From Candidatus Moraniibacteriota bacterium (GTDB lineage Bacteria; Patescibacteriota; Minisyncoccia; Moranbacterales; UBA2206), in NCBI GenBank assembly GCA_030679995.1, contig JAUXSK010000018.1, positions 121,492 through 185,491 of the forward strand: DNA of 64,000 nucleotides, written 5' to 3'. A model generated the notes under the pieces. The model did no database searches. It saw nothing but the letters and a program-made list of their open reading frames with translations, and was not told where the DNA came from. The stretch's first letter is position 1; the number at the start of each line of letters is the position of its first letter. This document shows, piece by piece, positions 8,129-43,172 of this stretch. The translations under genes and the position numbers were made by a program.

Positions 8129-9019
8129 ATGCATATGCACGATCATAGTGAAAAACGTATCGGCTGGGTCATTTTATTCAATGTGGCTATCGTAATCGCC
8201 GAGTATATCGGCGGCCTGCTTTCCGGGAGTTTGGCGTTGCTTTCTGACGCGGGACATAATTTTTCCGACGTGCTTTCGCTGATTATAAGCTATATTGGAG
8301 AGAGATTTTCCCATAGCGAATCGACGAAACGCCATTCATTCGGTTTCAAGCGCTTTGAAGTCGCCGCGGCCTTTATAAACGCGCTGTCCCTTTGCGTTAT
8401 CGCCATCATCATTATCATCGAGGCGATGGGCAGGCTGGGGTCGGGTCGGGAAATTTCCCTAGGTATTATGCTTCCGGTCGCGATCGCCGGACTTTTGGGT
8501 AATATTTTTTCCGTCGCGTTGCTTGTTAAGGAAAAAGGCAAAAACCTGAATATGAAATCGGCATATCTGCATTTGGCGTATGACGCGCTTTCTTCGGTTT
8601 TTGTAATCATCGCCGCTGTCGCGATCGCCTTGACGCACTTAGCCGTTATCGACGTGGCGATCAGCCTTGTTATCGCGCTGATGATGTTATGGAGCGGGCT
8701 TGGCGTGCTCAAACAAGCGTTGCATATTTTTATGCAGGGAGTGCCGGACGGCATTGATTTCCAAAGCGTCCATAACGACCTGGTTTCTTTGGACGGAGTC
8801 CGAAGCGTGCATGATTTGCATATTTGGTCCGTGAATTCGGAAGATGTTTTTCTTTCCTGCCACGCTTGTTTGGAAGAGAAGCAAGATAGCGATCAAATAA
8901 ACGGACTGATCATAAAAGCGAACGGGGTATTGAAAGAAAAATACGGTATCACGCATAGCGCCATCCAATTCGAATACGCCGGAATTTGCAAGGCTGGCGG
9001 GGTGTGTTGTGAGAAATAA
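8129..9019 (+). CDS. czcD: Cation diffusion facilitator (CDF) family metal efflux transporter.
   Basis: HxH N-terminus, LLSDAGHNFSDV and HLAYDALSS motifs, and the C-terminal HDLHIWS motif. Confidence 0.85.
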   Translation: MHMHDHSEKRIGWVILFNVAIVIAEYIGGLLSGSLALLSDAGHNFSDVLSLIISYIGERFSHSESTKRHSFGFKRFEVAAAFINALSLCVIAIIIIIEAMGRLGSGREISLGIMLPVAIAGLLGNIFSVALLVKEKGKNLNMKSAYLHLAYDALSSVFVIIAAVAIALTHLAVIDVAISLVIALMMLWSGLGVLKQALHIFMQGVPDGIDFQSVHNDLVSLDGVRSVHDLHIWSVNSEDVFLSCHACLEEKQDSDQINGLIIKANGVLKEKYGITHSAIQFEYAGICKAGGVCCEK

Positions 9020-16659: not shown

Positions 16660-17082
16660 ATGCTGGACATCGATAATATATTTGAAAAAATTAAACTGGA
16701 CGGCCATCGCCTCACCAAAATACGCAAGGCGATGATCGGGATTTTGTTCGCGGATAAATGTTTGCTCTCCGCTTCTGAGATCCGGACGCGCCTGTCAGTG
16801 TCGGGCCTGTCAGCCGACCGCACCACCGTCTATCGCGAGCTGGGTTTTTTGCTCGAAAAAAACATTATCAAGGAAATCAGGATCGCCGATCGTAAAACAT
16901 ATTATGAAATAGTATCGCCGGAACACCATCACCACCTGGTCTGCACCAAATGTAATAGCGTGCAGGAAATCGTTATGGGAAACCATTTGAAGCGGCAGGA
17001 AGACAGGATTTATAAGAAAGCGAGATTCAAGGTTTTGGCCCATTCTTTGGAGTTCTACGGTTTGTGCCGGAACTGCAGATAA
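16660..17082 (+). CDS. zur: Fur-family metalloregulator, probably Zur, given the adjacent znuACB.
   Basis: HTH region, HHHH cluster, CTKC...CRNC zinc-ribbon motifs. It overlaps znuA by 19 nt. Confidence 0.8.
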   Translation: MLDIDNIFEKIKLDGHRLTKIRKAMIGILFADKCLLSASEIRTRLSVSGLSADRTTVYRELGFLLEKNIIKEIRIADRKTYYEIVSPEHHHHLVCTKCNSVQEIVMGNHLKRQEDRIYKKARFKVLAHSLEFYGLCRNCR

Positions 17083-18020
17083 AAAATATGAAAAAAAATA
17101 TCACCATCATTCTTATTATCCTCTGGCTGGCCGTTGCCGGATCGTTTTTTTTGCCGATTAGGAATGACGGGCGGCCTTCCGAGGACGTCGCGGCAAAAAA
17201 ACTTGAGGTAGTCGCCAGTTTTTATCCGCTCTATTTCATAGCCAGCGAAATCGGAGGCGATCGGGCGGTTGTATCCGATATCGTGCCGGCCGGAGCGGAA
17301 CCGCACGAATATGAACCGACTGCCCGGGATATGGCGGAGATGGAGAATAGCCGGCTCATCATTATGAACGGCGCCGGCTTGGAAGCTTGGGGGGAAAATG
17401 TTGAAAAAAATATCGATGCCGGCAAAACGACGGTCATCCGGGCGGGAGAAAGTCTGGCTACGCGGCAGATGGAGCGGGATGGGCAGGTAGAAACGGATCC
17501 CCATATCTGGCTTGATCCGCTGCTGTTCCGGCAGATGGCCGATAAGGTCGCGCAAGGTTTCCAGCAGGCCGATCCGGAGAACGCGGATTATTATGCTTCT
17601 AACGCGGAGCTTCTCAAATCCCGATTGGACGGATTGGATCAGGAATACCGCCAGGGCTTGGGGGATTGCGCGGGAAAAAATATCATCACCGCCCATAACG
17701 CCTTCAGCTATCTGGCTGCGGCCTATGGTTTCAACCAAGTGGCGATCGCCGGCTTGTCTCCCGATGCCGAACCTTCCTTGCGTGACTTGGCTGGAATTTC
17801 CCGTTTCGCCCGGGACAATAGAGTAGAATATATATTTTTTGAAAGCCTGGCAAGTCCCAAACTTTCCGAGACGATCGCCAATGAAGTCGGCGCCAAGACG
17901 CTGGTGCTCAATCCGATCGAAGGGCTCAGTGATGAGGAATTGTCCCAAGGTAAAAATTACCTGACCGTTATGCGGGAAAATCTGGCCAATCTGCGGATCG
18001 CACTGGAGTGCGCAAGATAA
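17064..18020 (+). CDS. znuA: Zinc ABC transporter substrate-binding protein (ZnuA/TroA family).
   Basis: Signal anchor, EPHEYEPT and DPHIWLDP metal-site motifs. Confidence 0.85.
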   Translation: MPELQIKNMKKNITIILIILWLAVAGSFFLPIRNDGRPSEDVAAKKLEVVASFYPLYFIASEIGGDRAVVSDIVPAGAEPHEYEPTARDMAEMENSRLIIMNGAGLEAWGENVEKNIDAGKTTVIRAGESLATRQMERDGQVETDPHIWLDPLLFRQMADKVAQGFQQADPENADYYASNAELLKSRLDGLDQEYRQGLGDCAGKNIITAHNAFSYLAAAYGFNQVAIAGLSPDAEPSLRDLAGISRFARDNRVEYIFFESLASPKLSETIANEVGAKTLVLNPIEGLSDEELSQGKNYLTVMRENLANLRIALECAR

Positions 18021-18040
18021 ATTTTCTTAAAAGATAAAAA

Positions 18041-18832
18041 ATGAAAAAATCCAACAGGGTGGACCATAATAAAAACATCATCGAAGTGGCGGACGTTTAT
18101 TTTTCATATGACGGCCGGGAAGATGTTTTGCAAAACATCACCTTGGAGATCCATCAAGGCGATTATATCGGTTTGGTCGGTCCCAACGGCGCCGGAAAAA
18201 CGACCTTGCTCAAGCTGATGCTCAACTTGCTCGTCCCGCGCTGTGGATCAGTCAGACTGTTCGGCCAGGATATGCGGGATTTCAAAGATTGGCATAAGAT
18301 CGGCTATGTGCCGCAGAAGCTGGCCAACTTCGATGCTAATTTTCCTGCCAGTGTCTTTGAGGTCGTATTGATGGGGCGGTATGATAACAAGCGCCTGTTC
18401 CAGCGCACTACGGAAACGGATAAAAAAGCCGTTCTGGATGCATTGAACCAAGTCGATATGTGGGAATTCAAAGACCGGCTGATCGGCGATCTGTCCGGCG
18501 GACAACAACAGCGGGTGTTCATTGCCCGGGCGCTGGTCAACCGGCCTGAAGTCATTTTTTTGGATGAGCCGACGGCCGCCGTGGACAGGGAGGCTCAGGA
18601 CAGTTTTTTTGCGCTGTTGCAAAAACTCAACCAGGAAGCGGGACTGACTTTGGTGCTGGTGTCACACGACATCCGGCGTTTGACGCAGGAAGTTATGCAC
18701 ATCGCCTGCGTCGACAAGACGCTGACTTGCCACATTTCGCCGGAAGAATATCTGGCTGAAAGCGAGTCTTCGGATATCGGCGGCAAGAAAGTCAAAATCC
18801 TAACTCATCATCATCACAATCAAAATGTTTGA
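18041..18832 (+). CDS. znuC: Zinc ABC transporter ATPase with a C-terminal His-rich tail.
   Basis: Walker A GPNGAGKTT, signature LSGGQQQR, Walker B IFLDEPT, and tail ILTHHHHNQNV. Confidence 0.9.
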   Translation: MKKSNRVDHNKNIIEVADVYFSYDGREDVLQNITLEIHQGDYIGLVGPNGAGKTTLLKLMLNLLVPRCGSVRLFGQDMRDFKDWHKIGYVPQKLANFDANFPASVFEVVLMGRYDNKRLFQRTTETDKKAVLDALNQVDMWEFKDRLIGDLSGGQQQRVFIARALVNRPEVIFLDEPTAAVDREAQDSFFALLQKLNQEAGLTLVLVSHDIRRLTQEVMHIACVDKTLTCHISPEEYLAESESSDIGGKKVKILTHHHHNQNV

Positions 18833-19625
18833 AAATATTTTCCAATACGGTTTCATAATACGGGGACTCGAGGCCGGCATCATTGTCGCCATAATCGCGC
18901 CGCTCATCGGGATTTTTTTGGTGCTGAGGCGTTATTCGCTGATCGCGGATACGCTGGCCCATGTCTCATTGGCGGGCATCGCGATCGGTTTGCTGTTGGG
19001 AATAAACCCCGTATTGACGGCCATCGGCACCGCTGTCGCCGCTTCTTTAGGCATCGAAAAACTGCGGACTTCCAAACGGCTTTTCGGCGAGTCGGCGCTG
19101 GCGCTTTTCCTTTCCGGAAGTCTGGCTCTCGCGGTCGTCATCCTGGGTCTGGCCAACGGTTTCAATGCCAGCCTGCTTAATTATCTGTTCGGAAGCATCG
19201 TAACCGTATCGGCAGCCGACGTGCGTATGATTTTTATCTTGGCGTTCGTGGTGGTCCTGGTTTTGGGAATTTTTTATAAACAATTGATCTATGTCACTTT
19301 CGATGAGGAAGCGGCCAGGATCAGTGGTATTCCGACGCGCCTAGTGAATTCCGTCCTGATCGTCCTGGCCGCTTTGACCGTGGCGCTGGCCATCCCGATC
19401 GTCGGAGTGCTTCTTATCTCGGCTCTCATCGTCATTCCGGTGGTGACGGCGCTTCAGTTCAGGAAGAGTTTCACCCGGACGATCATCTATGCCGAAGCCG
19501 TTTCGCTTTTTTCCGTCATCGCGGGAATCCTGGTCTCTTTCTATTTCAATCTCGCGACCGGCGGATCCATCGTCCTGGTTATGCTGGCGATTTTCGCCGG
19601 CGCGCTCATTGTCCGGCGGCGCTGA
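18825..19625 (+). CDS. znuB: Zinc ABC transporter permease.
   Basis: ABC-3 family 8-TM permease. It overlaps znuC by 8 nt. Confidence 0.85.
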   Translation: MFENIFQYGFIIRGLEAGIIVAIIAPLIGIFLVLRRYSLIADTLAHVSLAGIAIGLLLGINPVLTAIGTAVAASLGIEKLRTSKRLFGESALALFLSGSLALAVVILGLANGFNASLLNYLFGSIVTVSAADVRMIFILAFVVVLVLGIFYKQLIYVTFDEEAARISGIPTRLVNSVLIVLAALTVALAIPIVGVLLISALIVIPVVTALQFRKSFTRTIIYAEAVSLFSVIAGILVSFYFNLATGGSIVLVMLAIFAGALIVRRR

Positions 19626-33903: not shown

Positions 33904-35088
33904 ATGAAAAAAATGATCAAAAGCGGACTCATCGTGCTCGCGGTCGCTGCAATTGCCGGGTATGGAACATACTCTTTCTTTAGCGACACAGAAACGTCTT
34001 CGGGAAACAATTTTACCGCAGGAGAAATCGACCTGACCGTGACCAATACTGGCAGCGCTACGGACGGCGCTTGTACGTTTGATAATACGCCAGGCGGACC
34101 GATTTTTAATTGTACTGATGTGAAGCCTGGAGACAATGGTGAAAGCACATTGAACTTCAACCTTACAAGCAATCCTGCTTGGGCTTGTATGTATGTGGAC
34201 AATGTTGTTGATAGTGATAATGGGTGCAACGATCCGGAATTGGCTGCTGAATCAGTTTGTACGGAAGATGGAAATGGTGAATTAGACAACGCTCTAATGC
34301 TGACTGTTTGGGTTGATGACGGCGCTGGAGATGGCGGAACAGCATGTAATAATATCCGAGACGGATCAGAAGAGGTAATTATAGGCAATCAGGCGTTAAG
34401 CTCTTTTGTGTTGCCAACGGGAGGCTATGTCCTTCCTATTTCAGACGCAAGTGCTGATTCTATGATGACCGCTCCAGTCCAACCGGGTGACCATTGTGTC
34501 GGTGTCGCGTGGAGTGTCGATCCAACAACAGGAAACGAAGTGCAGACAGATAAATTAGGTGGTGATCTGACCTTCTATGTTGAACAGGCAAGAAACAATG
34601 ATGGATTCACATGCGCGGCACATTTCACGCCTGCGGAAGGAGTGCAAACATTGACTCTTGAAAATGAGATACAGAATCCGACAGGACCTTGGACACCGAT
34701 TACCGGTGACGGGATACAAGGAACATTAGTTTGGCAAGGAGATGGAGATACATTTGATTACACTCTAACTGCGCAAGGATTACCTGCTAATTCATCATAC
34801 AGTTTGATTTATTATGCTGATCCTTACCCAGGTAATAATCCAGGTAAATTAATCGGAACACACATGACCGATGGAGATGGCGAAATCGATGCTGCTGGAA
34901 ATCCAGATTTAGGAATGGATTTGCCAGATCCTGCAGATGCTAACTTCGGGACTGGTGCTAAGATTTGGTTGATTCCAAGCAGTGCATATGATGCTGCGAG
35001 CAGTAGTATCATTTCTTGGACACCAGATACTACTACCTGGTTGTTCGAAGGTAATGTTTACATCCATTACAACGATACGAATAACTAA
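33904..35088 (+). CDS. TasA/camelysin-like secreted protein with a SipW-cognate signal peptide (paralog 1).
   Basis: MKKMIKSGLIVLAVAAIAGYGTYSFFSDTETSSGNNFTAGEIDL matches the SipW-cognate class motif. A paralog-conserved DVKPGDNGE...AWACMYVD block follows. Confidence 0.75.
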   Translation: MKKMIKSGLIVLAVAAIAGYGTYSFFSDTETSSGNNFTAGEIDLTVTNTGSATDGACTFDNTPGGPIFNCTDVKPGDNGESTLNFNLTSNPAWACMYVDNVVDSDNGCNDPELAAESVCTEDGNGELDNALMLTVWVDDGAGDGGTACNNIRDGSEEVIIGNQALSSFVLPTGGYVLPISDASADSMMTAPVQPGDHCVGVAWSVDPTTGNEVQTDKLGGDLTFYVEQARNNDGFTCAAHFTPAEGVQTLTLENEIQNPTGPWTPITGDGIQGTLVWQGDGDTFDYTLTAQGLPANSSYSLIYYADPYPGNNPGKLIGTHMTDGDGEIDAAGNPDLGMDLPDPADANFGTGAKIWLIPSSAYDAASSSIISWTPDTTTWLFEGNVYIHYNDTNN

Positions 35089-35199
35089 ACAAGATGTAGT
35101 CTTTTACTTCCGCTCATTTTCAAAATGGGCGGGAGAATAAAGATCTAAGGATAATTAATTACTTGCATAAGTAAGTACCTAAGTAAGTATTAAAACAAT

Positions 35200-36543
35200 A
35201 TGATGAAAATATTGAAAAGCCTTGCAATCGTCATTGCCATCGCGGCTATCGCGGGGGGAGCATCCTATTCGTTTTTCTCTGACACGGAAATGTCAGCTGG
35301 CAATATGTTCACGGCGGGAGTTATTAATTTAAAAATTGATAATTCAAGTTATGCCATAGATTCTGTTATTCCTGGGTTTGATGATCCGGTGGGAGATTTG
35401 GTTGCGAGTCCGCACAATACCTGGTCCTATGACAACCTCACCGATCAACTATTTTTCAATTTTGAAGATTTGAAACCGGGGGATATAGGGGAAGACACGA
35501 TCGGTTTGCAGGTTTCCAGTAATGACGCTTGGGCGTGTATGAAGGTGGACATAACGGACACTCCTGAAAATGATTTGATAGATCCGGAAGCAGAAGCAGG
35601 GGACAAGACAGAAAAGAACGGGGAACTTCAAGATGAGCTAAGTTTCGCTTTTTGGGCGGATGACGGGGACAATGTATATGAAGATGAGGAAGTCACGCTT
35701 GATGATGGCAATCCGGGCATATTTTTAGAGGGAAAAGCCGCAGATATTTTCAAAAATAAATTTATTACGCTGGCTGATTCAATGGCTGATGTGTGGCCTG
35801 GCGGCAATGGCCGTCCGATAATCGCGGGTGAAAATTATTATATTGCTAAGGTTTGGTGCTTTGGAAAATTGACTCCGGCACCTGTCTCATCCGGAGACGG
35901 AGATCCTCTCCATCGCGGAACTGGATTTTTATGTGATGGAGATTCAGTTTCTAGCGCGTCTCAAACGGATGGGATAAAAGCGGACGTGACATTCTACTCT
36001 GAGCAAGCTAGAAATAATCCGCACTTCGTCTGTAATCAGCAGGAGTGCTTGGCTGATACTGTCTATACTTCAGAAGTCGAAAGCAATGTCCAAGGTACGC
36101 TCAATGATGGCACTCCTGTGATTGATCCGGATCGGACTGACCCAAGTGAGGCTAATGGTCCGCCAGATTGGGTTAGTGGAACTGGCACGAACTTCTATAG
36201 TCTGGGTAAAGGTGGGACAGTGACTCTGAAATTTGCCGATGTCGTCGGTAATGGGAATGGAAATGACCTCGCTGTCTATGAAGCGACCAACGGGCGCGAT
36301 TCATATCCGCTGGAAAGTGCGGATGTGGAAGTGAGCCTCAATGGAAAGGCTTGGTATCCTGTTGGCATAGCCACAAGCGAACCTGGTGGGGATGGCGTTT
36401 CATATTTTGATATATCTTCCACTCCTCTTTCAATGTTCAAATATGTAAGACTGACTGATTCGACTGATTTCTCTTTGCACAACAGTATCTCCGACGGATT
36501 TGATTTGGACGCGGTTGGTGGTGTCTACGGAGAGTGCGAATAA
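35200..36543 (+). CDS. TasA/camelysin-like secreted protein (paralog 2).
   Basis: MMKILKSLAIVIAIAAIAGGASYSFFSDTEMSAGNMFTAGVINL, then DLKPGDIGEDTIGLQVSSNDAWACMKVD. Confidence 0.75.
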   Translation: MMKILKSLAIVIAIAAIAGGASYSFFSDTEMSAGNMFTAGVINLKIDNSSYAIDSVIPGFDDPVGDLVASPHNTWSYDNLTDQLFFNFEDLKPGDIGEDTIGLQVSSNDAWACMKVDITDTPENDLIDPEAEAGDKTEKNGELQDELSFAFWADDGDNVYEDEEVTLDDGNPGIFLEGKAADIFKNKFITLADSMADVWPGGNGRPIIAGENYYIAKVWCFGKLTPAPVSSGDGDPLHRGTGFLCDGDSVSSASQTDGIKADVTFYSEQARNNPHFVCNQQECLADTVYTSEVESNVQGTLNDGTPVIDPDRTDPSEANGPPDWVSGTGTNFYSLGKGGTVTLKFADVVGNGNGNDLAVYEATNGRDSYPLESADVEVSLNGKAWYPVGIATSEPGGDGVSYFDISSTPLSMFKYVRLTDSTDFSLHNSISDGFDLDAVGGVYGECE

Positions 36544-36592
36544 TTATTGTTAAATATGTGATGTCCATCGCGTGCTATAAGAATACATTCTA

Positions 36593-37675
36593 ATGAATAA
36601 GATTATAACAAAATTTTCTAGAAACCTGATCATAGCCGTTTTTATTTTAGCTATGGGGGGATATGAGACGTATGCTTGTGTCGTGCAAGGCAAGGAGCTT
36701 TTTTGGCATAACTTTCCCGATAAGAAATTGGATTTGGAGATAAGCTATGCCGGATATTATAATAAGGATGCCGACAATCATCCCAATGCGGGAAGCTGGC
36801 GGCAACAGGACCTGACTACGCAGAAATTTTTTGATTTCTATGATATCAAACCGGGCGATTTCGGTGAGGGCACAATCGGCTTGCGCCTCAAGCACCAAGA
36901 TGCTTGGGGTTGTGCCACCATCCGTCCGACCGAAAATGATGATAATGGCTCCACTGAACCGGAATTGTTCGAGGATGCGCAAAATGTGGCAGCTGATAAA
37001 TGGGATGGCGAGTTGGCGAAAAAAATTAATTTTAAGATCTGGGCCGATGTTTGTTCGAAAAGATATGTGAAAGCGGGCGATAATGTTTTTCAGCCTGATT
37101 GCGATCGGCTTATAACCAGCGGTACCGGTCCGTTGCAGGAGCTTGACTTAGTTTTGGCTGACACTGAAAATCCGAATGTTTTCAACGGGAATATGGGACC
37201 GCTCAAAAAAAACAAAAACTATTATATAGGCGTAGATTGGAATATCGATTCGGATGTCGGCAATATCATCCAAACTGATTCATATAAGGCAGACATAACT
37301 TTTTTTGTCCAGCAGTCGGTTGGCAACCAGGACTTCCGTTGCGCTGATATCCGTAATGATGATCCGGATAAATGCTCGGATGGCGCCATACGCAATTGTT
37401 ATTCAGGTGATTTCGATAAAATCGATATCGGCATCTGTCGAAGCGGGACTGAAGCTTGCGTTCAAGGAAACTGGGGAAATTGTTCCGGAGAGATTTTTCC
37501 TGACAAGGAAATCTGCAAAGACAATCTGGATAACGACTGTGACGGGCAAATCGATGAAGGATGCCCGCCAATATGCCAGCGCGTGAGTGATTGCGACGAC
37601 CACAATTCAAAAACCGATGACAACTGCGTGAATAAAGAATGCGTGCATACGGAGAAAAAGAATTTAAAACGGTAA
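36593..37675 (+). CDS. Divergent TasA-like paralog 3 with a C-terminal cysteine-rich MopE-like/EGF-like metal-binding domain.
   Basis: DIKPGDFGEGTIGLRLKHQDAWGCATI is conserved with paralogs 1 and 2. C-terminus: CSDGAIRNCYSGDFDKIDIGICRSGTEACVQGNWGNCSGEIFPDKEICKDNLDNDCDGQIDEGCPPICQRVSDCDDHNSKTDDNCVNKEC. Confidence 0.65.
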   Translation: MNKIITKFSRNLIIAVFILAMGGYETYACVVQGKELFWHNFPDKKLDLEISYAGYYNKDADNHPNAGSWRQQDLTTQKFFDFYDIKPGDFGEGTIGLRLKHQDAWGCATIRPTENDDNGSTEPELFEDAQNVAADKWDGELAKKINFKIWADVCSKRYVKAGDNVFQPDCDRLITSGTGPLQELDLVLADTENPNVFNGNMGPLKKNKNYYIGVDWNIDSDVGNIIQTDSYKADITFFVQQSVGNQDFRCADIRNDDPDKCSDGAIRNCYSGDFDKIDIGICRSGTEACVQGNWGNCSGEIFPDKEICKDNLDNDCDGQIDEGCPPICQRVSDCDDHNSKTDDNCVNKECVHTEKKNLKR

Positions 37676-37698
37676 TACATAAAATAATATGAAAAGAT

Positions 37699-38355
37699 AT
37701 GACGGATAAAATTTTAAAAATTTTAAAAAATCTCATTTGGACGGCAATCGTCGTATTCCTGATTTTGATCGGTATAACATTCATTCCGATCAAAGGAAAT
37801 TACAAGGTTTATACGGTACAATCAGGTTCGATGGAGCCAGCTATCCATACCGGCAGTTTAATTTTTGTTAAAAGTCAGGAAAGTTACAGTGTAGATGATA
37901 TTGTAACGCGGGCGACCAAAGGCTCAAGAGCGACTGTCACGCATCGTATCATTTCTAAAAAAACGGAAGGTAGCAAGGTAATATTTGAAACCAAGGGAGA
38001 TGCTAATGAGGATCCAGATAGGGAAAGCGTGAGTCAAGATACGATTATTGGTAAGAAATTTTTTCAAATACCATATATCGGCTATCCAGTCGGATACGCT
38101 CGGACGATGCCGGGATTCATCCTTCTTATAATTATCCCAGCCGTAATTATCGTTTATGAAGAGATTAGGAAAATCAAAGAAGAAATCGTGAATATCTGGA
38201 AAAAGAAAAATGGGAAAGAAAATTTGCTTGTGGAAGATAATTTATCGGAAAAAAAATATACCCGAGTGTTAGCAGAGAATAATATCACGAATATAGGTCT
38301 TGAAACCAAAGAAGGCCTTATTAAGAAAGAAAAAATCAGTCGGAAAAAAGGATAA
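37699..38355 (+). CDS. sipW: Signal peptidase I, SipW type (S26B, archaeal/eukaryal-like).
   Basis: VQSGSMEPAIHTGSLIFVK carries the catalytic Ser. There is a C-terminal TM helix and a K/E-rich tail. Confidence 0.8.
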   Translation: MTDKILKILKNLIWTAIVVFLILIGITFIPIKGNYKVYTVQSGSMEPAIHTGSLIFVKSQESYSVDDIVTRATKGSRATVTHRIISKKTEGSKVIFETKGDANEDPDRESVSQDTIIGKKFFQIPYIGYPVGYARTMPGFILLIIIPAVIIVYEEIRKIKEEIVNIWKKKNGKENLLVEDNLSEKKYTRVLAENNITNIGLETKEGLIKKEKISRKKG

Positions 38356-38360
38356 TTTTT

Positions 38361-38828
38361 TTGAAGAGGTTGCATAGTCTGTATAAAAAACATTCAAATA
38401 TGAAAGCGATTTTAAAATCATTGACACGGATTTTCATCGTAACCTTTCTGGTTGTTTTTGTCTTTGATATGAATCGTATTATCGGCACTGATTCTTCTTT
38501 TAGTGATATGGAATTGTCTTCAGATAATTCGTTTGTTGCTGGAAAGTGGGAGGAAAAAACAGATGTAATACTCAAAATAAAAGAGCTTAGATTGCCTGAA
38601 GAAAAACAGGACACGGTAATTTCTCCTACGATAAGCGAGCAAGTTGATAGTCCGCCATCTGAGCCATCTTTGCCTGTGGATGATGATATTCAGGACCAAG
38701 AAGAGGTTCCTGATGAAGAGGTTCGGAACGTTCTTGGTATTGAAGATCCGGTAGGGCAGGAGCAACCTTTGTCATCGGATGAGTCGGACTCTCCGACTGT
38801 GGATGGAGAGGGACAGGAATCATTGTGA
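38361..38828 (+). CDS. Small secreted acidic protein with a SipW-cognate-like motif (TapA-like accessory?).
   Basis: TM/signal region then GTDSSFSDMELSSDNSFVAGKWEE, followed by a D/E/P/S-rich tail. The start may be the TTG at 38361 or the ATG at 38400. Confidence 0.5.
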   Translation: MKRLHSLYKKHSNMKAILKSLTRIFIVTFLVVFVFDMNRIIGTDSSFSDMELSSDNSFVAGKWEEKTDVILKIKELRLPEEKQDTVISPTISEQVDSPPSEPSLPVDDDIQDQEEVPDEEVRNVLGIEDPVGQEQPLSSDESDSPTVDGEGQESL

Positions 38829-39015
38829 TAAACACTCGCAATATAATCCAGGATATCTATTCGCTGGGAAATGGATCGGATAGGGCTGCTGTAACAATCG
38901 GCAATCAATGTCGGTTTTTTTGTCTTTTCCGCTTTTGTTGACAAACCAAGCCGGTTGGGATAGCTTGTAAACAACTAAAAAAATCAAAATACAACTGAAA
39001 TAGAGGAGGTGCAGA

Positions 39016-40209
39016 ATGAAGGGAATTGAAAGGGTTTATTGTGATTTCGCGATCCGGACCGTTTTGGGTGCCGCATTGGATTTGATGCAAACCCCCGTGG
39101 CGGAGGTCCTGAAAAAGCAAAAAATCGGCAAAAGAGACACATTGGGAATGGATGCCGTGCCTGAAAACAGCATCCGTGAAGCGGTCGACGGTTTTTTTAT
39201 CAATCCGGTGTTGGTGACGGAGGAAACGGACCACATCACCAGGAAACACTGGCCTGAGGATTCCGATCCCGACAAACAGCCGTTGATGTTCTTTTCCGAT
39301 CCATTGGATCGGTCGGCCAAATTCGGGCGGTTCCTGAGGACTTTCCCGGACATTTGCGGGAAAAGTGAAATCGATTTGGTCGGTGATGTCATCGCTTGCC
39401 CGGAGGCGAACAGCTATTGGGAGAAGGAGATCGACAACATTTCGCCGATTATGATTTCCGGCGCGACCATCTCACTCACTTGCGTAAACCGGGGTAACAT
39501 AGTCGTTTCCGTGGTGATGAATATTATGACCCGGACGATTTTTGTCGCCTGTCTCAGTGGCACCTATGCGTTCTGTGTCCGTGGAGATGTGGATCAGATA
39601 GGCAAGATCCACTCCACGATCAATTTGAAAGCGGTTGAACGGAAGGGGAAAAAAATCAGCTTTTGTTCCAGCAAAAATAGATGCGAGAACCGGGAGGATT
39701 TTCTCAGATTCGTTTCTTTCGTCGGTAAAACCGGCTATGAGGAAAACCTGACCAATAGCGGTATCTTGCCGGACTATCGATCGCATTTATATCATGATTG
39801 TCCCGGTGGTCCTTCCAGAATCCTGTTTCTTTCCGATTTCCAGTCTGCCAAATCGCCGATCGGGTTTATTATGGCTAATGGGGAAAAAATCGGTGAATGG
39901 ATCCATTGGTTGGCGTATGTCAAATTCGCCAAAGATATCCAAGGCAAAAACAGCTTCAATATCTATGAGGTAAGTTTGGCGCAAACATTGGCTAAAGAGA
40001 GTATTCTGATGTCCCCGTTACCGCCGTATTCGATTTTCCGGCACAAGAGCAACAGCGCCAGAAGTTCGTTTTTGAATATCAGCCGTCTGCGCGATTTGGA
40101 CCGGCCGAGCAATTTCCGATCGACGGTCATCGTGACCAAGGCGGACAATATGCGGGTCAAAAACATTATGTACGGCAAAGGCTTCCATGATGTCAGCGCG
40201 TCGCTTTGA
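39016..40209 (+). CDS. Hypothetical 397-aa protein with possible IMPase/FBPase-superfamily metal-site motifs.
   Basis: VLVTEETDH followed 25 residues later by FFSDPLDRSAKF, compared with the IMPase pattern EE...DP(I/L)DG(T/S).F. No C-terminal WDxAAG-type motif is seen. The SD is GAGGAGGTG. Confidence 0.4.
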   Translation: MKGIERVYCDFAIRTVLGAALDLMQTPVAEVLKKQKIGKRDTLGMDAVPENSIREAVDGFFINPVLVTEETDHITRKHWPEDSDPDKQPLMFFSDPLDRSAKFGRFLRTFPDICGKSEIDLVGDVIACPEANSYWEKEIDNISPIMISGATISLTCVNRGNIVVSVVMNIMTRTIFVACLSGTYAFCVRGDVDQIGKIHSTINLKAVERKGKKISFCSSKNRCENREDFLRFVSFVGKTGYEENLTNSGILPDYRSHLYHDCPGGPSRILFLSDFQSAKSPIGFIMANGEKIGEWIHWLAYVKFAKDIQGKNSFNIYEVSLAQTLAKESILMSPLPPYSIFRHKSNSARSSFLNISRLRDLDRPSNFRSTVIVTKADNMRVKNIMYGKGFHDVSASL

Positions 40210-40213
40210 TCAA

Positions 40214-40322
40214 ACGGATCCGCCCGCCCGCAACCCGCCCTGTTTTTTTTCACAGGGCGGGTTATTTTATTCCAAAACAAAAAGGGATGACCGAAAGGTA
40301 TCCCTTTTATTTTTTTGTCGAA
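40214..40322. terminator. Convergent terminator pair.
   Basis: cccgccctg-ttttttttt-cagggcggg, then aagggat...atccctttt followed by attttttt, between the converging genes 39016(+) and 40333(-). Confidence 0.7.
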
Positions 40323-40332
40323 ACCTGTTTTG

Positions 40333-41505
40333 CTAATCCGCGGAGTCGATCAATTCCAGATTGCGCGTGTGCCAATTCAGGACGGCTGTTTTTTTGATCA
40401 TCAACTTGAACATATCAGGATGTTCCTTTTCGATGACTTCCGAAGCGTATTGGCTCAAAAATTGCGATTTCAATTCAGCTCTGGCTTTGTCCACGCCGAT
40501 TTCCGAATAGGGGGCCGAGGTCAGGAGCAAAAAACCGTCTTTGGGAATCATCCCGCGTTCCATATTCGATTTTATGATGCTAGCCGCGGTTTTGATCGGT
40601 CCGCTGATGTCGGGGCTGTAGGGGCCGATGATGAGCGCGATATTGGGCACGTGCAGAAAATCGAAACCGCGTCCGATGCAGATGATCCATTCGCGATGCA
40701 CCGAATCCAGTTCCAGATTGCGGTGGGCGTTGCGGATATCGGAGATATGTTCGATGTTGCCGGTGACCAATGGCAATAAATCGCGCAACACTTGGTCGGG
40801 CATATCCGGATACATCGCGCGCAATTTGTTGGTCAGAAATTCTTTGGAAGAATCCGTGCTTTCGGCCAGATTGAAAATTTCCTTGTTTTCCCCGTCGTGG
40901 AGGATCATCGCGTCTTCGTCCGTTTCGATCCCGCAAATCAGCGGATAGACGGCCTGGTGGTTTTGGCCGAAAATATATTCCGCTTGTTTTTTGACTTCAA
41001 AGACATGTTTGATGGCGGCATCGCAATCATATTTGAAACCGGCGCAGCCGCGGTGTCCATCGCCTTTGGAATAGTGATAGGTGATGATCATCAACACCCG
41101 GCGGGAATCTTCGATGGCGGCGTTGACCGTGTTATACAGCACTTCACCTAGATACGGCCAGCCAAGATTGAACATCCCGCCGATATTGCGGAAAGGTTTG
41201 ATGATGCCCAATGGGGTCTTGGTCGCGTAGGGCAGATGGATCCGGCCATCCATACATTTCAAGGCGATTATCATCGTCGGATGTTTAGCGGAATATCTTT
41301 TGCGAGAAAGATAGGCTTCGGAAGAGCAATAGGCGTTGGAATGTTTCTTGCTTAAGTCCAAGAGCCAGTCGATCCGTTCCTGGATCGGCATATGGTAGAT
41401 GTCCGCCTCGCGGGCGTCGATATATTTGTTGATTTCTTTCATATACGTGGATTGAATAATATTATTGCCTGCTTTAAAGTATAGTTCCTGGTCCAGCAAA
41501 GTCAA
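40333..41505 (-). CDS. Hypothetical 390-aa protein with a beta-carbonic-anhydrase-like Cys/His pattern.
   Basis: MIIALKCMDGRIH (C84-x-D86-x-R88) and ITYHYSKGDGHRGCAGF (H151-x-x-C154), compared with the beta-CA pattern CxDxR...HxxCG. The rest of the protein is unrecognised. Confidence 0.4.
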   Translation of the reverse strand: MTLLDQELYFKAGNNIIQSTYMKEINKYIDAREADIYHMPIQERIDWLLDLSKKHSNAYCSSEAYLSRKRYSAKHPTMIIALKCMDGRIHLPYATKTPLGIIKPFRNIGGMFNLGWPYLGEVLYNTVNAAIEDSRRVLMIITYHYSKGDGHRGCAGFKYDCDAAIKHVFEVKKQAEYIFGQNHQAVYPLICGIETDEDAMILHDGENKEIFNLAESTDSSKEFLTNKLRAMYPDMPDQVLRDLLPLVTGNIEHISDIRNAHRNLELDSVHREWIICIGRGFDFLHVPNIALIIGPYSPDISGPIKTAASIIKSNMERGMIPKDGFLLLTSAPYSEIGVDKARAELKSQFLSQYASEVIEKEHPDMFKLMIKKTAVLNWHTRNLELIDSAD

Positions 41506-41589
41506 TATTGGACAAGCTGTTCCGGATTATGATAAAATTGCCACTTAACGGGGGTAGCTTAACAATAAAATCAGACCGGTGAGGTTCGT

Positions 41590-42045
41590 ATGTTGAAATC
41601 GAAACTTGTTAAATTAGGAGCGGATGAAAAAAGCTTTGCGATTGTCAGTCGCGATTTGACGGAACTGCCAGATGGCATACTTAAAGCGGAGGGTCTATTA
41701 TGGAATCTTTGGGATATCGGAGTAAAATTCGGCCAAGAATATCCTAACGGCATCCGGCTCAATGCCGAACCTTTGATCCTGGATCTGTATGACTTTCGCG
41801 GTGCCAGGAATAGCAATTTCGGATTTTCAGTCGGGCGGACGGACAAGATCGGAACCGTAGCCCGGATATTAGTATTTGATTTGATGAACGGTATGCAAAT
41901 TTTTTGGGATTCAGGGCTGGGCGTTCCGGAAGTCCGGCAAGTCATCGAGGAGATCGACGCATATGCGGACTCCCAAAGTCTTGTTAAAGATGGTATCCGG
42001 CTGATGGACTACAATGGTTCTTTCGGTGTGAGGGATACGGAATGA
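41590..42045 (+). CDS. Hypothetical 151-aa protein.
   Basis: ORF only; no motif recognised. Confidence 0.4.
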   Translation: MLKSKLVKLGADEKSFAIVSRDLTELPDGILKAEGLLWNLWDIGVKFGQEYPNGIRLNAEPLILDLYDFRGARNSNFGFSVGRTDKIGTVARILVFDLMNGMQIFWDSGLGVPEVRQVIEEIDAYADSQSLVKDGIRLMDYNGSFGVRDTE

Positions 42046-42257
42046 ATTTTTCCGGAAAAATCGTCTATGCTTCAAGGGAGCATAGGCGCAAAAGAGGGGT
42101 GGCCGGTCATTGACCGATCACCCTGATTTTTTGTTTTGGGATGGCGATAGATATTTGACATTAGCCTTAAAACAAGCCATCATAAGCAATAATATAAACC
42201 CGGTTCTTTCAAAACGACAGGCTTCAAAAAATCGGAAGCCTGTTTTTACACATCCAA

Positions 42258-43172
42258 TTGGAAAAGGAGAAAAATATGATTGGAAAACCAGTTGTTCAGA
42301 CGAATTTTGGTGATCTGCGTTTGCTTCATCGCGGCAAGGTCCGCGATATCTATGAAGTGGAGGATAAGTTGCTGATAGTGGCGACCGATCGCGTTTCCGC
42401 CTTTGATGTGGTGATGGATGAACCCATTCCCAATAAAGGAGCGGTGCTGACCGGTCTTTCCATTTTTTGGTTCGATTATCTGCGGGATATCGTGCCGAAC
42501 CATCTCATTTCCGTTAACCCTGAGTATTATCCGGAAGTCTGCGCCCCGTACCGGGAGCAGCTGCGTGGTCGCAGTATGCTGGTGAAAAAAGCTAATCCCT
42601 TGCCGGTGGAATGCATCGTGCGCGGCTATCTGTCCGGCTCGTTTTGGAAAGCCTACCAAAAAAATACTACGGTGTGCGGATTTGCGCTGCCCTCCGGCAT
42701 GCGGGAGTCGGAAAGGCTGCCGGAAGTTATCTTTACCCCGTCCACCAAGGCGGAGCTGGGGACTCATGATGAGAATATTTCGCTGGCCAAGATGGCGGAA
42801 CTGGTCGGGCAGCCGGAGACGGAAAAAATCGCCGCTATCTGCAAGGCGCTCTACTGCAAAGCGGCTGATTATGCTCGTAAGCGCGGCATTATCATCGCCG
42901 ATACGAAATTCGAGCTGGGCTGGTATGAGGGCGAGCTGATACTTATCGACGAAGTACTTACGCCGGACTCGTCGCGTTTCTGGCCGGCATATGAATATGA
43001 GGTCGGTAAGGGCCAACCTAGTTTCGATAAGCAGTTCTTGCGGGACTATCTTTCTTCCTTGGACTGGAATCAGGCTCCGCCGGCTCCTGTTTTGCCGCCG
43101 GAAATCATCGACAAGACCAAGACCCGCTATCAGGAGGCTTTCCTGTATCTGACGGGTCATAACATCACGTAA
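42258..43172 (+). CDS. purC: Phosphoribosylaminoimidazole-succinocarboxamide (SAICAR) synthase.
   Basis: [25 protein letters not shown] and GSFWKAYQ are canonical PurC motifs. The start may be the internal MIGKP at 42276. Confidence 0.9.

Follow-up and report, generated by a model that had tools for sequence, protein, structure and literature searches.

The 64,000-nucleotide stretch analysed here (the window), from contig JAUXSK010000018.1 of a Candidatus Moraniibacteriota bacterium, carries three consecutive genes, termed P1, P2 and P3, which an earlier note on this DNA had described as proteins of 397, 390 and 151 amino acids (aa) lying between a fibre operon and purC. All three open reading frames (ORFs) are present at those coordinates and lengths, and their placement between the fibre operon and purC is confirmed (Table 1). 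Against two related genomes, the ratio of nonsynonymous to synonymous substitution (dN/dS) is 0.11-0.12 for P1, 0.03 for P2 and 0.07-0.16 for P3, and because these values span only 0.03-0.16 we regard all three ORFs as real coding genes under purifying selection. The picture that emerges, to which we assign a probability of roughly 0.78, is one of three independent functional genes and not of a three-gene system: P1 would be a Mg2+-dependent phosphatase of the inositol monophosphatase/fructose-1,6-bisphosphatase (IMPase/FBPase) superfamily, P2 would be the carbonic anhydrase (CA) homolog CsoSCA2, and P3 would represent a family whose predicted fold has no match.

Table 1. Genes, signal-like sites and candidate active-site residues of the P1-P2-P3 locus (window coordinates).
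Feature	Position	Strand	Details
P1 gene	39016..40209	+	397 aa; ORF confirmed present
P2 ORF as noted earlier	40333..41505	-	390 aa, TTG start
P2 gene, revised start	40333..41442	-	369 aa from ATG at 41442; CsoSCA2 by sequence
P3 gene	41590..42045	+	151 aa; short-form family member
Terminator-like hairpin	38896..38916	+	8-pair stem, then T-run TTTTTGTCTT
Hairpin between convergent P1 and P2	40232..40263	.	12-bp stem, 8 G-C pairs
P2 promoter-like site	41478..41505	-	TTGACT-16-TATACT
P3 promoter-like site	41509..41538	+	TGGACA-18-TAAAAT with extended TG; divergent from P2
P1 candidate metal/catalytic residues			D46, E50, E69, E70, D95, D98, S100, E290

P1 is the most useful lead of the three. It has no match in Pfam or NCBIfam at E <= 1, including PF00459 (Inositol_P), PF00316 (FBPase) and PF03320 (GlpX), and a single-sequence search of the PDB returned none. 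The earlier statement that none of the three proteins matches a family therefore stands at the level of hidden Markov models (HMMs) for P1 and for P3, and falls for P2, which passes PF20686. Homologs of P1, ~385-400 aa long, fill at least 195 database clusters, and all of those with a named source are from Patescibacteria (Moran-, Falkow-, Sung-, Komeili-, Magasanik- and Doudnabacteria); one, from a Candidatus Moranbacteria metagenome-assembled genome (MAG), is 100% identical. The suggestion that the trio might be lineage-specific enzymes is apt for P1 in its restriction to Patescibacteria; it does not suit P2, a widespread CsoSCA2 carried by at least 571 reference genomes, nor P3, in which no sign of an enzyme was seen.

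Conservation in the P1 family was judged first from an alignment of 40 diverse members and then from 177 distinct sequences. The E-E and DP(L)D(R)S spacing to which the earlier note drew attention is present (E69-E70; D95-P-L-D98-R-S100) and, with conservation in 176-177 of the 177 members, is no chance pattern. T68-E69-E70, found in every member, aligns to the TEE of IMPases, so that E69/E70 match the metal-binding glutamates of the superfamily (human IMPase E70; FBPase E97/E98), and in the loop D95 and S100 are kept in 176 sequences and P96 and D98 in 177. Other essentially invariant residues are K39, D41, D46, E50 and the block N288-G289-E290-K291-x-x-E294. When the family profile was compared with the PDB, the sole match was to an inositol monophosphatase, weak in score (E 0.4) and aligned exactly on GKxD..D...E ... 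TEE ... DPxD. An hhalign comparison with a canonical IMPase from locus L086 recovered the same motifs over the N-terminal half only (E 0.076), with an insertion of ~35 residues in P1 after the DPxDRS loop. The predicted model of P1 has the two-domain alpha-beta-alpha-beta-alpha sugar-phosphatase fold, at only 10-17% sequence identity to superfamily members such as CysQ (3B8B), the archaeal FBPase/IMPase AF2372 (1LBV), SuhB (2Q74) and Hal2p (1K9Y).

Judged by these motifs and by the predicted fold, P1 is a divergent member of the IMPase/FBPase/3'-phosphoadenosine 5'-phosphate (PAP)-phosphatase superfamily and a new family-level branch within it, which in essence bears out the IMPase/FBPase-like motif that the earlier note had seen. 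By analogy with the superfamily, P1 would be an active Mg2+-dependent phosphomonoesterase in which two or three Mg2+ are bound by E69/E70, D95, D98 and, probably, E290, and in which S100, in concert with E69/E70, would prime a water molecule for attack on the phosphate ester. The N288-G289-E290-K291 segment falls where strand 284-291 gives way to helix 292-304, and we infer, from strand/helix order only, that E290 is the topological counterpart of IMPase D220 and FBPase E280.

Several features weigh against placing P1 in this superfamily, and they should be set beside the motifs. P1 lacks a PF00459 or PF00316 match. The superfamily motif A loop follows the PROSITE-type pattern DPxD[GS][ST], which P1 does not match literally, since Arg replaces the usual Gly; residue 99 is Arg in 167 of the 177 members, at a position where Gly or Ser is usual. 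The C-terminal WDxAAG motif is absent in its literal form, as the earlier note had remarked, and its place is taken by an invariant NGEKxxEW. The proposed equivalence of E290 and D220 derives solely from the matching order of strands and helices. Finally, P1 exceeds IMPases in length by ~130-150 residues and carries insertions behind the DPxDRS loop, between its domains and ahead of the last strand.

Many basic and aromatic residues are invariant in P1 (K39, R99, K238, Y241, R268, K291, K327 and R368), and for this reason the sequence suggests a bis-phosphorylated sugar or nucleotide as the substrate. It is possible, although we are doubtful, that P1 acts instead on another classical substrate of the superfamily, such as PAP (CysQ-like), inositol monophosphate, NADP(H) or histidinol phosphate. 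The Z differences are trivial. As a further point against such substrates, bacteria from the candidate phyla radiation (CPR) are generally without sulfate assimilation and without de novo lipid or inositol metabolism, and the 87 P1 loci hold no supporting gene context: no neighboring family recurs in more than 7 of them, and those 7 are from the window's own relatives.

A more tentative proposal, and in our view an unlikely one, is that P1 is the missing fructose-1,6- or sedoheptulose-1,7-bisphosphatase of many Patescibacteria and hence a new FBPase class. FBPase is patchy or missing in published CPR reconstructions (PMC9166423, PMC5220378), and it is because recognised FBPases are patchy in CPR that fructose-1,6-bisphosphate comes to mind as a first guess for P1. 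If this were true, the apparent gap in Patescibacteria gluconeogenesis would be filled, and, for the P1-carrying lineages, reconstructions in which these organisms cannot build hexose phosphates out of C3 units would be in error. CPR reconstructions rely on HMM annotation, and a sugar- or nucleotide-phosphatase invisible to it could explain "missing" steps such as FBPase. Whichever substrate P1 uses, the superfamily member proposed here adds to that superfamily a family that is Pfam-less and restricted to Patescibacteria.

P3 matches no known family or HMM. A word-indexed search found two relatives; exhaustive searching by HMMER, with a profile built from three sequences, returned 46, 23 of them below 1e-10. 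The two members with a named organism are both from Parcubacteria-group/Patescibacteria MAGs. The family falls into two length classes, ~130-165 aa and ~235-275 aa, which share a conserved domain of ~140 aa with the motifs LWxLWDIxxKFG, NGxxVxWD and IDxxA..GxR; to this domain an extension of ~90 aa is added at the C-terminus of the long forms, and P3 is a short form, like roughly half of the family. Its alpha+beta fold is predicted with confidence and, in the model, is without known relatives. No catalytic signature is visible in P3, which we would guess, with low confidence, to be a binding or regulatory protein. We also considered whether P3 might be a split or truncated gene, and rejected this, as no remnant of the C-terminal domain could be detected downstream in the window or in the related locus L003; the ~10 residues after the P3 stop weakly resemble the long form. 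A relationship to the 246-aa gene upstream of the Desulfurispirillum CsoSCA2 was rejected as well, that protein having a signal-peptide-like N-terminus. The P3 family HMM found nothing in L001 or in any CsoSCA2 locus outside Moranbacteria.

P3 is also the fastest-evolving gene of the locus. Between the window and the related genome L012, P1 is 92% identical, P2 98% and purC 88%, with synonymous divergence (dS) of 0.26-0.54, whereas P3 and its counterpart at L012:9402-9857 share 53% aa identity with a saturated dS of ~4.3. From this contrast we suspect allele replacement or recombination limited to the one gene, P3. One might speculate that P3 is a fast-evolving conflict-type protein, perhaps an immunity protein, an antitoxin or an anti-phage accessory, and not a housekeeping factor. 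The saturated dS between conserved flanks, with its look of allele replacement, would fit such a role, as would a family that is small and patchy and whose C-terminal domain is optional. P3 has, however, no PADLOC or PHROG match, no viral fold match and no toxin-like partner gene adjoining it, and we therefore consider this role improbable. Until a context or a partner is found, P3 is of minor interest.

P2 can be named with more assurance. It scores 27.2 bits against Pfam PF20686 (CsoSCA_cat), above the gathering score of 21.5, and 35.8 bits against the equivalog model TIGR02701, far under its cutoff of 241. In a PDB sequence search it matches all solved CsoSCA structures (2FGY, E 1.8e-5). 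The Pro_CA HMM gave no significant match, and Pro_CA_2 reached 12.8 bits (E 0.14), under its cutoff of 30. There are 1933 detectable homologs of 349-371 aa. Identity to P2 is 66-98% within CPR-type sequences and 57-62% to proteins of Desulfurispirillum, Chrysiogenes, Sulfuricella, Marinospirillum and others, Proteobacteria among them, including 62% to Selin_1106 of Desulfurispirillum indicum and 59%, over 91% of the query, to P0120 of Chrysiogenes arsenatis.

The active site of P2 is complete. In the numbering of the 390-aa ORF, the alignment to 2FGY pairs the catalytic residues C173, D175, R177, H242, C253, H397 and E399 of Halothiobacillus neapolitanus CsoSCA (Sutter, Kerfeld & Scott 2022, Table 2; PMC9164163) with C84, D86, R88, H144, C154, H270 and E272, and all seven are kept in 119-120 of 120 family members. 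The earlier note had proposed a beta-CA-type zinc site of the form CxDxR, 62 aa, HxxCxG. That pattern is present exactly (C84/D86/R88; H151/C154/G156), and the proposal was right in kind, as the PF20686 match, the 2FGY alignment and the residue conservation agree. Its histidine was misplaced: by the 2FGY alignment the zinc ligand is H144, in YHYS, conserved in 120 of 120 members, while H151 of the apparent HxxC occurs in 71 of the 120 (59%). A check of the flagged residues accordingly finds CxDxR and C154 in 119-120 of 120 members, H151 excepted, alongside the near-invariance of the EE and DPxD residues in P1. The note had named an outcome that would count against it, namely confident matches to unrelated families in which the flagged residues vary; this was not seen. 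The start of P2 also needs revision. Homologs begin at MKEINKY, which corresponds to the ATG at 41442, and on this sequence comparison the true start is that ATG; the TTG at 41505 lies 63 nt upstream of it, and the "TTG start" of the 390-aa ORF coincides with the -35 hexamer of the P2 promoter-like site.

By its sequence, then, P2 is CsoSCA2: a deeply divergent beta-CA, compact and non-carboxysomal, that is homologous to the carboxysome shell CA. CsoSCA2 was named by Sutter, Kerfeld & Scott (2022, Front Microbiol 13:872708; PMC9164163). They reported that it occurs widely, away from carboxysome loci, in both autotrophs and heterotrophs, that one of its domains is active and another defunct, and that its N-terminus is much shortened and every catalytic residue present; Candidatus Moranbacteria, with nine genomes, are among the carriers that they listed (footnote to their Table 1). 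P2 resembles it in its ~369 aa, its short N-terminal region, its active and defunct domain region and its location outside a carboxysome locus, and differs in nothing substantive; the CPR copies simply form the identity group around P2 noted above. With the 514-aa H. neapolitanus enzyme (2FGY; epsilon/beta-class) P2 shares the catalytic core, but its Cys motif begins at residue 63 (369-aa numbering, so with 62 residues before it) and not at residue 173, leaving it ~110 residues shorter there and without the Rubisco-binding N-terminus. Carboxysomal CsoSCA has an N-terminal domain of ~144 aa, and the alignment of P2 to 2FGY begins at the catalytic domain. With canonical beta-CAs (Pro_CA; CxDxR...HxxC) P2 has in common CxDxR and a Cys/His/Cys zinc site; the difference is that the ligand His of P2 and CsoSCA lies 10 residues before the Cys (YHYS...GC) and not in HxxC. 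A canonical beta-CA reading of P2 was ruled out on the 59% conservation of the HxxC His and the want of a Pro_CA match.

A further difference concerns redox control. In H. neapolitanus, C283/C284 form a redox switch that holds carboxysomal CsoSCA inactive in the reducing cytosol, and such a vicinal-Cys switch is found in ~80% of CsoSCA (bioRxiv 10.64898/2026.04.02.716132). The corresponding AHCCGAS segment aligns to a gap in P2, which has no vicinal CC pair, and any CC occurs in 1 of 119 homologs. Because both the Rubisco-binding N-terminus and this switch are absent, free cytosolic CA activity is to be expected. P2 would thus be a cytosolic zinc carbonic anhydrase with zinc on C84, H144 and C154, D86-R88 as the beta-CA Asp-Arg dyad and H270/E272 completing the active site; it would turn CO2 into HCO3- and back without restraint in the cytoplasm, perhaps for bicarbonate-requiring biosynthesis or for pH/CO2 handling. 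A caution is in order, in that the absence of the pair does not by itself prove constitutive activity of P2, Cys-to-Ala variants of the carboxysomal redox pair being inactive (bioRxiv 10.64898/2026.04.02.716132). A literature search on CA function in Patescibacteria found nothing specific. The present analysis confirms Moranbacteria as carriers of CsoSCA2 and adds the detail that the family, CPR copies included, lacks the vicinal-Cys redox switch, which fits a cytosolic enzyme. It also bears on why so compact a CA is so widespread and so conserved (~60% identity between CPR and Proteobacteria).

Some relatives of beta-CAs hydrolyse carbonyl sulfide (COS) or CS2, and it could be asked whether P2 is such a related hydratase or, alternatively, the catalytic head of a system for energy-coupled CO2 hydration. 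Many CsoSCA2 carriers are sulfur oxidisers (Sulfuricella, Thiobacillus, Thiodiazotropha, Sulfurimicrobium, Ectothiorhodospiraceae), a complex-I-like membrane module stands beside CsoSCA2 in ~18 of 83 loci (counted among L012-L091), and CsoSCA2 has been the subject of no experimental study, hence of no assay (PMC9164163). We nevertheless think either role quite improbable for P2, as all seven CsoSCA catalytic residues are invariant, the family extends to heterotrophs (Marinobacter, Halomonas relatives, Chrysiogenes) and to CPR genomes without complex-I-like modules, and no membrane partner adjoins P2 in the window.

The proteobacterial modules themselves comprise a NuoB-like, a fused NuoCD-like and a NuoH-like protein and two Proton_antipo_M subunits. 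In Sulfuricella sp. T08 (L005:9092-17062), CsoSCA2 and the module lie beside a SulP/STAS transporter and cbbLS-cbbQO. By analogy with cyanobacterial NDH-1/CupA and with DabAB, CsoSCA2 and this module may there form an energy-coupled system for CO2 hydration or for the uptake of dissolved inorganic carbon; the module is absent from the CPR window. Two MAGs labelled "uncultured Gammaproteobacteria" (L013) and "uncultured delta proteobacterium" (L016) carry CsoSCA2 that are 83% and 77% identical to P2, well above the ~60% typical of Proteobacteria, which points either to mislabelled bins or to recent lateral transfer between CPR and Proteobacteria. The window that holds the zinc enzyme CsoSCA2 encodes, too, a CDF-type zinc/cation efflux protein (8129-9019) and a ZnuA/ZnuC/ZnuB-like zinc uptake system (17064-19625).

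What, then, of the three genes together? P1 and P2 are convergent and P2 and P3 divergent, and the 147-bp spacer between the latter carries promoter-like sites on both strands. The hairpin between P1 and P2 is probably a terminator common to both. The hairpin at 38896..38916, 3' of the ORF at 38361..38828 and 5' of the P1 start, separates the TasA/camelysin-like fibre operon from P1. Of the "strong terminators" that were said to bracket the trio, only the one at 40232..40263 is good; that at 38896..38916 is weaker, and terminator-like sites are in no excess over shuffled sequence (5 found, 4.2 expected). Taken with their orientation, these promoter- and terminator-like sites indicate that P1, P2 and P3 are separate transcription units.

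The same conclusion follows from comparison of loci. Among 76 other CsoSCA2 loci, including the CPR-like L013-L016, none has a relative of P1 or P3 within 10 kb, and CsoSCA2 or P3 lies near P1 in 5 of 87 P1 loci, all of them from close relatives of the window. CsoSCA2 has no conserved neighborhood in these loci, its neighbors being lineage-specific. Because co-occurrence is limited to close Moranbacteria relatives, we attribute the adjacency of P1, P2 and P3 to lineage synteny. In favor of a linked set, it must be said, the order P1-P2-P3-purC (P1 > < P2 < > P3 >) is shared by the window, L003/L004 and L011=L012, three Moranbacteria genomes in all, as a functional module would predict no less than synteny does. 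The trio as a linked set, which the earlier note had entertained, is nonetheless not borne out: the genes are convergent or divergent, have their own signals and are adjacent only in close relatives. A carbon-handling module of CA, sugar-bisphosphatase and accessory protein, serving for example a CPR RuBisCO/nucleoside-salvage or gluconeogenic route, could claim the kept gene order, even in the genome whose P3 is 53% identical, and the divergent promoter region shared by P2 and P3, but it is highly improbable in the face of an arrangement that allows no operon, the locus counts just given, the unrelated neighborhoods seen around other P1 homologs and around a distant relative of P3, and a 64-kb window whose annotated ORFs include no RuBisCO, shell or CsoS2 gene.

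The surroundings of the trio are in keeping with a Patescibacteria/CPR genome. On the upstream side are the TasA/camelysin-like fibre genes and a SipW-type signal peptidase; downstream are purC, a pyridoxal phosphate (PLP)-dependent enzyme of the PALP family and a C39-like peptidase; and the rest of the window holds many glycosyltransferases and transporters. Searches of the window yielded neither tRNAs nor Rfam families. A 304-aa ORF at 42246-43160 (-), antisense to purC (42258-43172, +), merely shadows the SAICAR synthetase gene and is no gene itself. Between 26001 and 34000 the G+C content falls to 0.38-0.41, against 0.44-0.51 in the flanks, and this block, which may be acquired DNA, encodes a GH81 glucanase, a cellulose-synthase-like GT2, an HlyD-like protein and a Pfam-less protein of 686 aa. 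The fibre genes (Peptidase_M73 N-termini) and the SipW-type peptidase at 33904-38828 are 87-96% identical to their counterparts in L003 and only 27-43% identical to those of L012, although P1 and P2 of that genome are 92-98% identical, and the surface-fibre cassette thus appears to have been swapped between otherwise close genomes.

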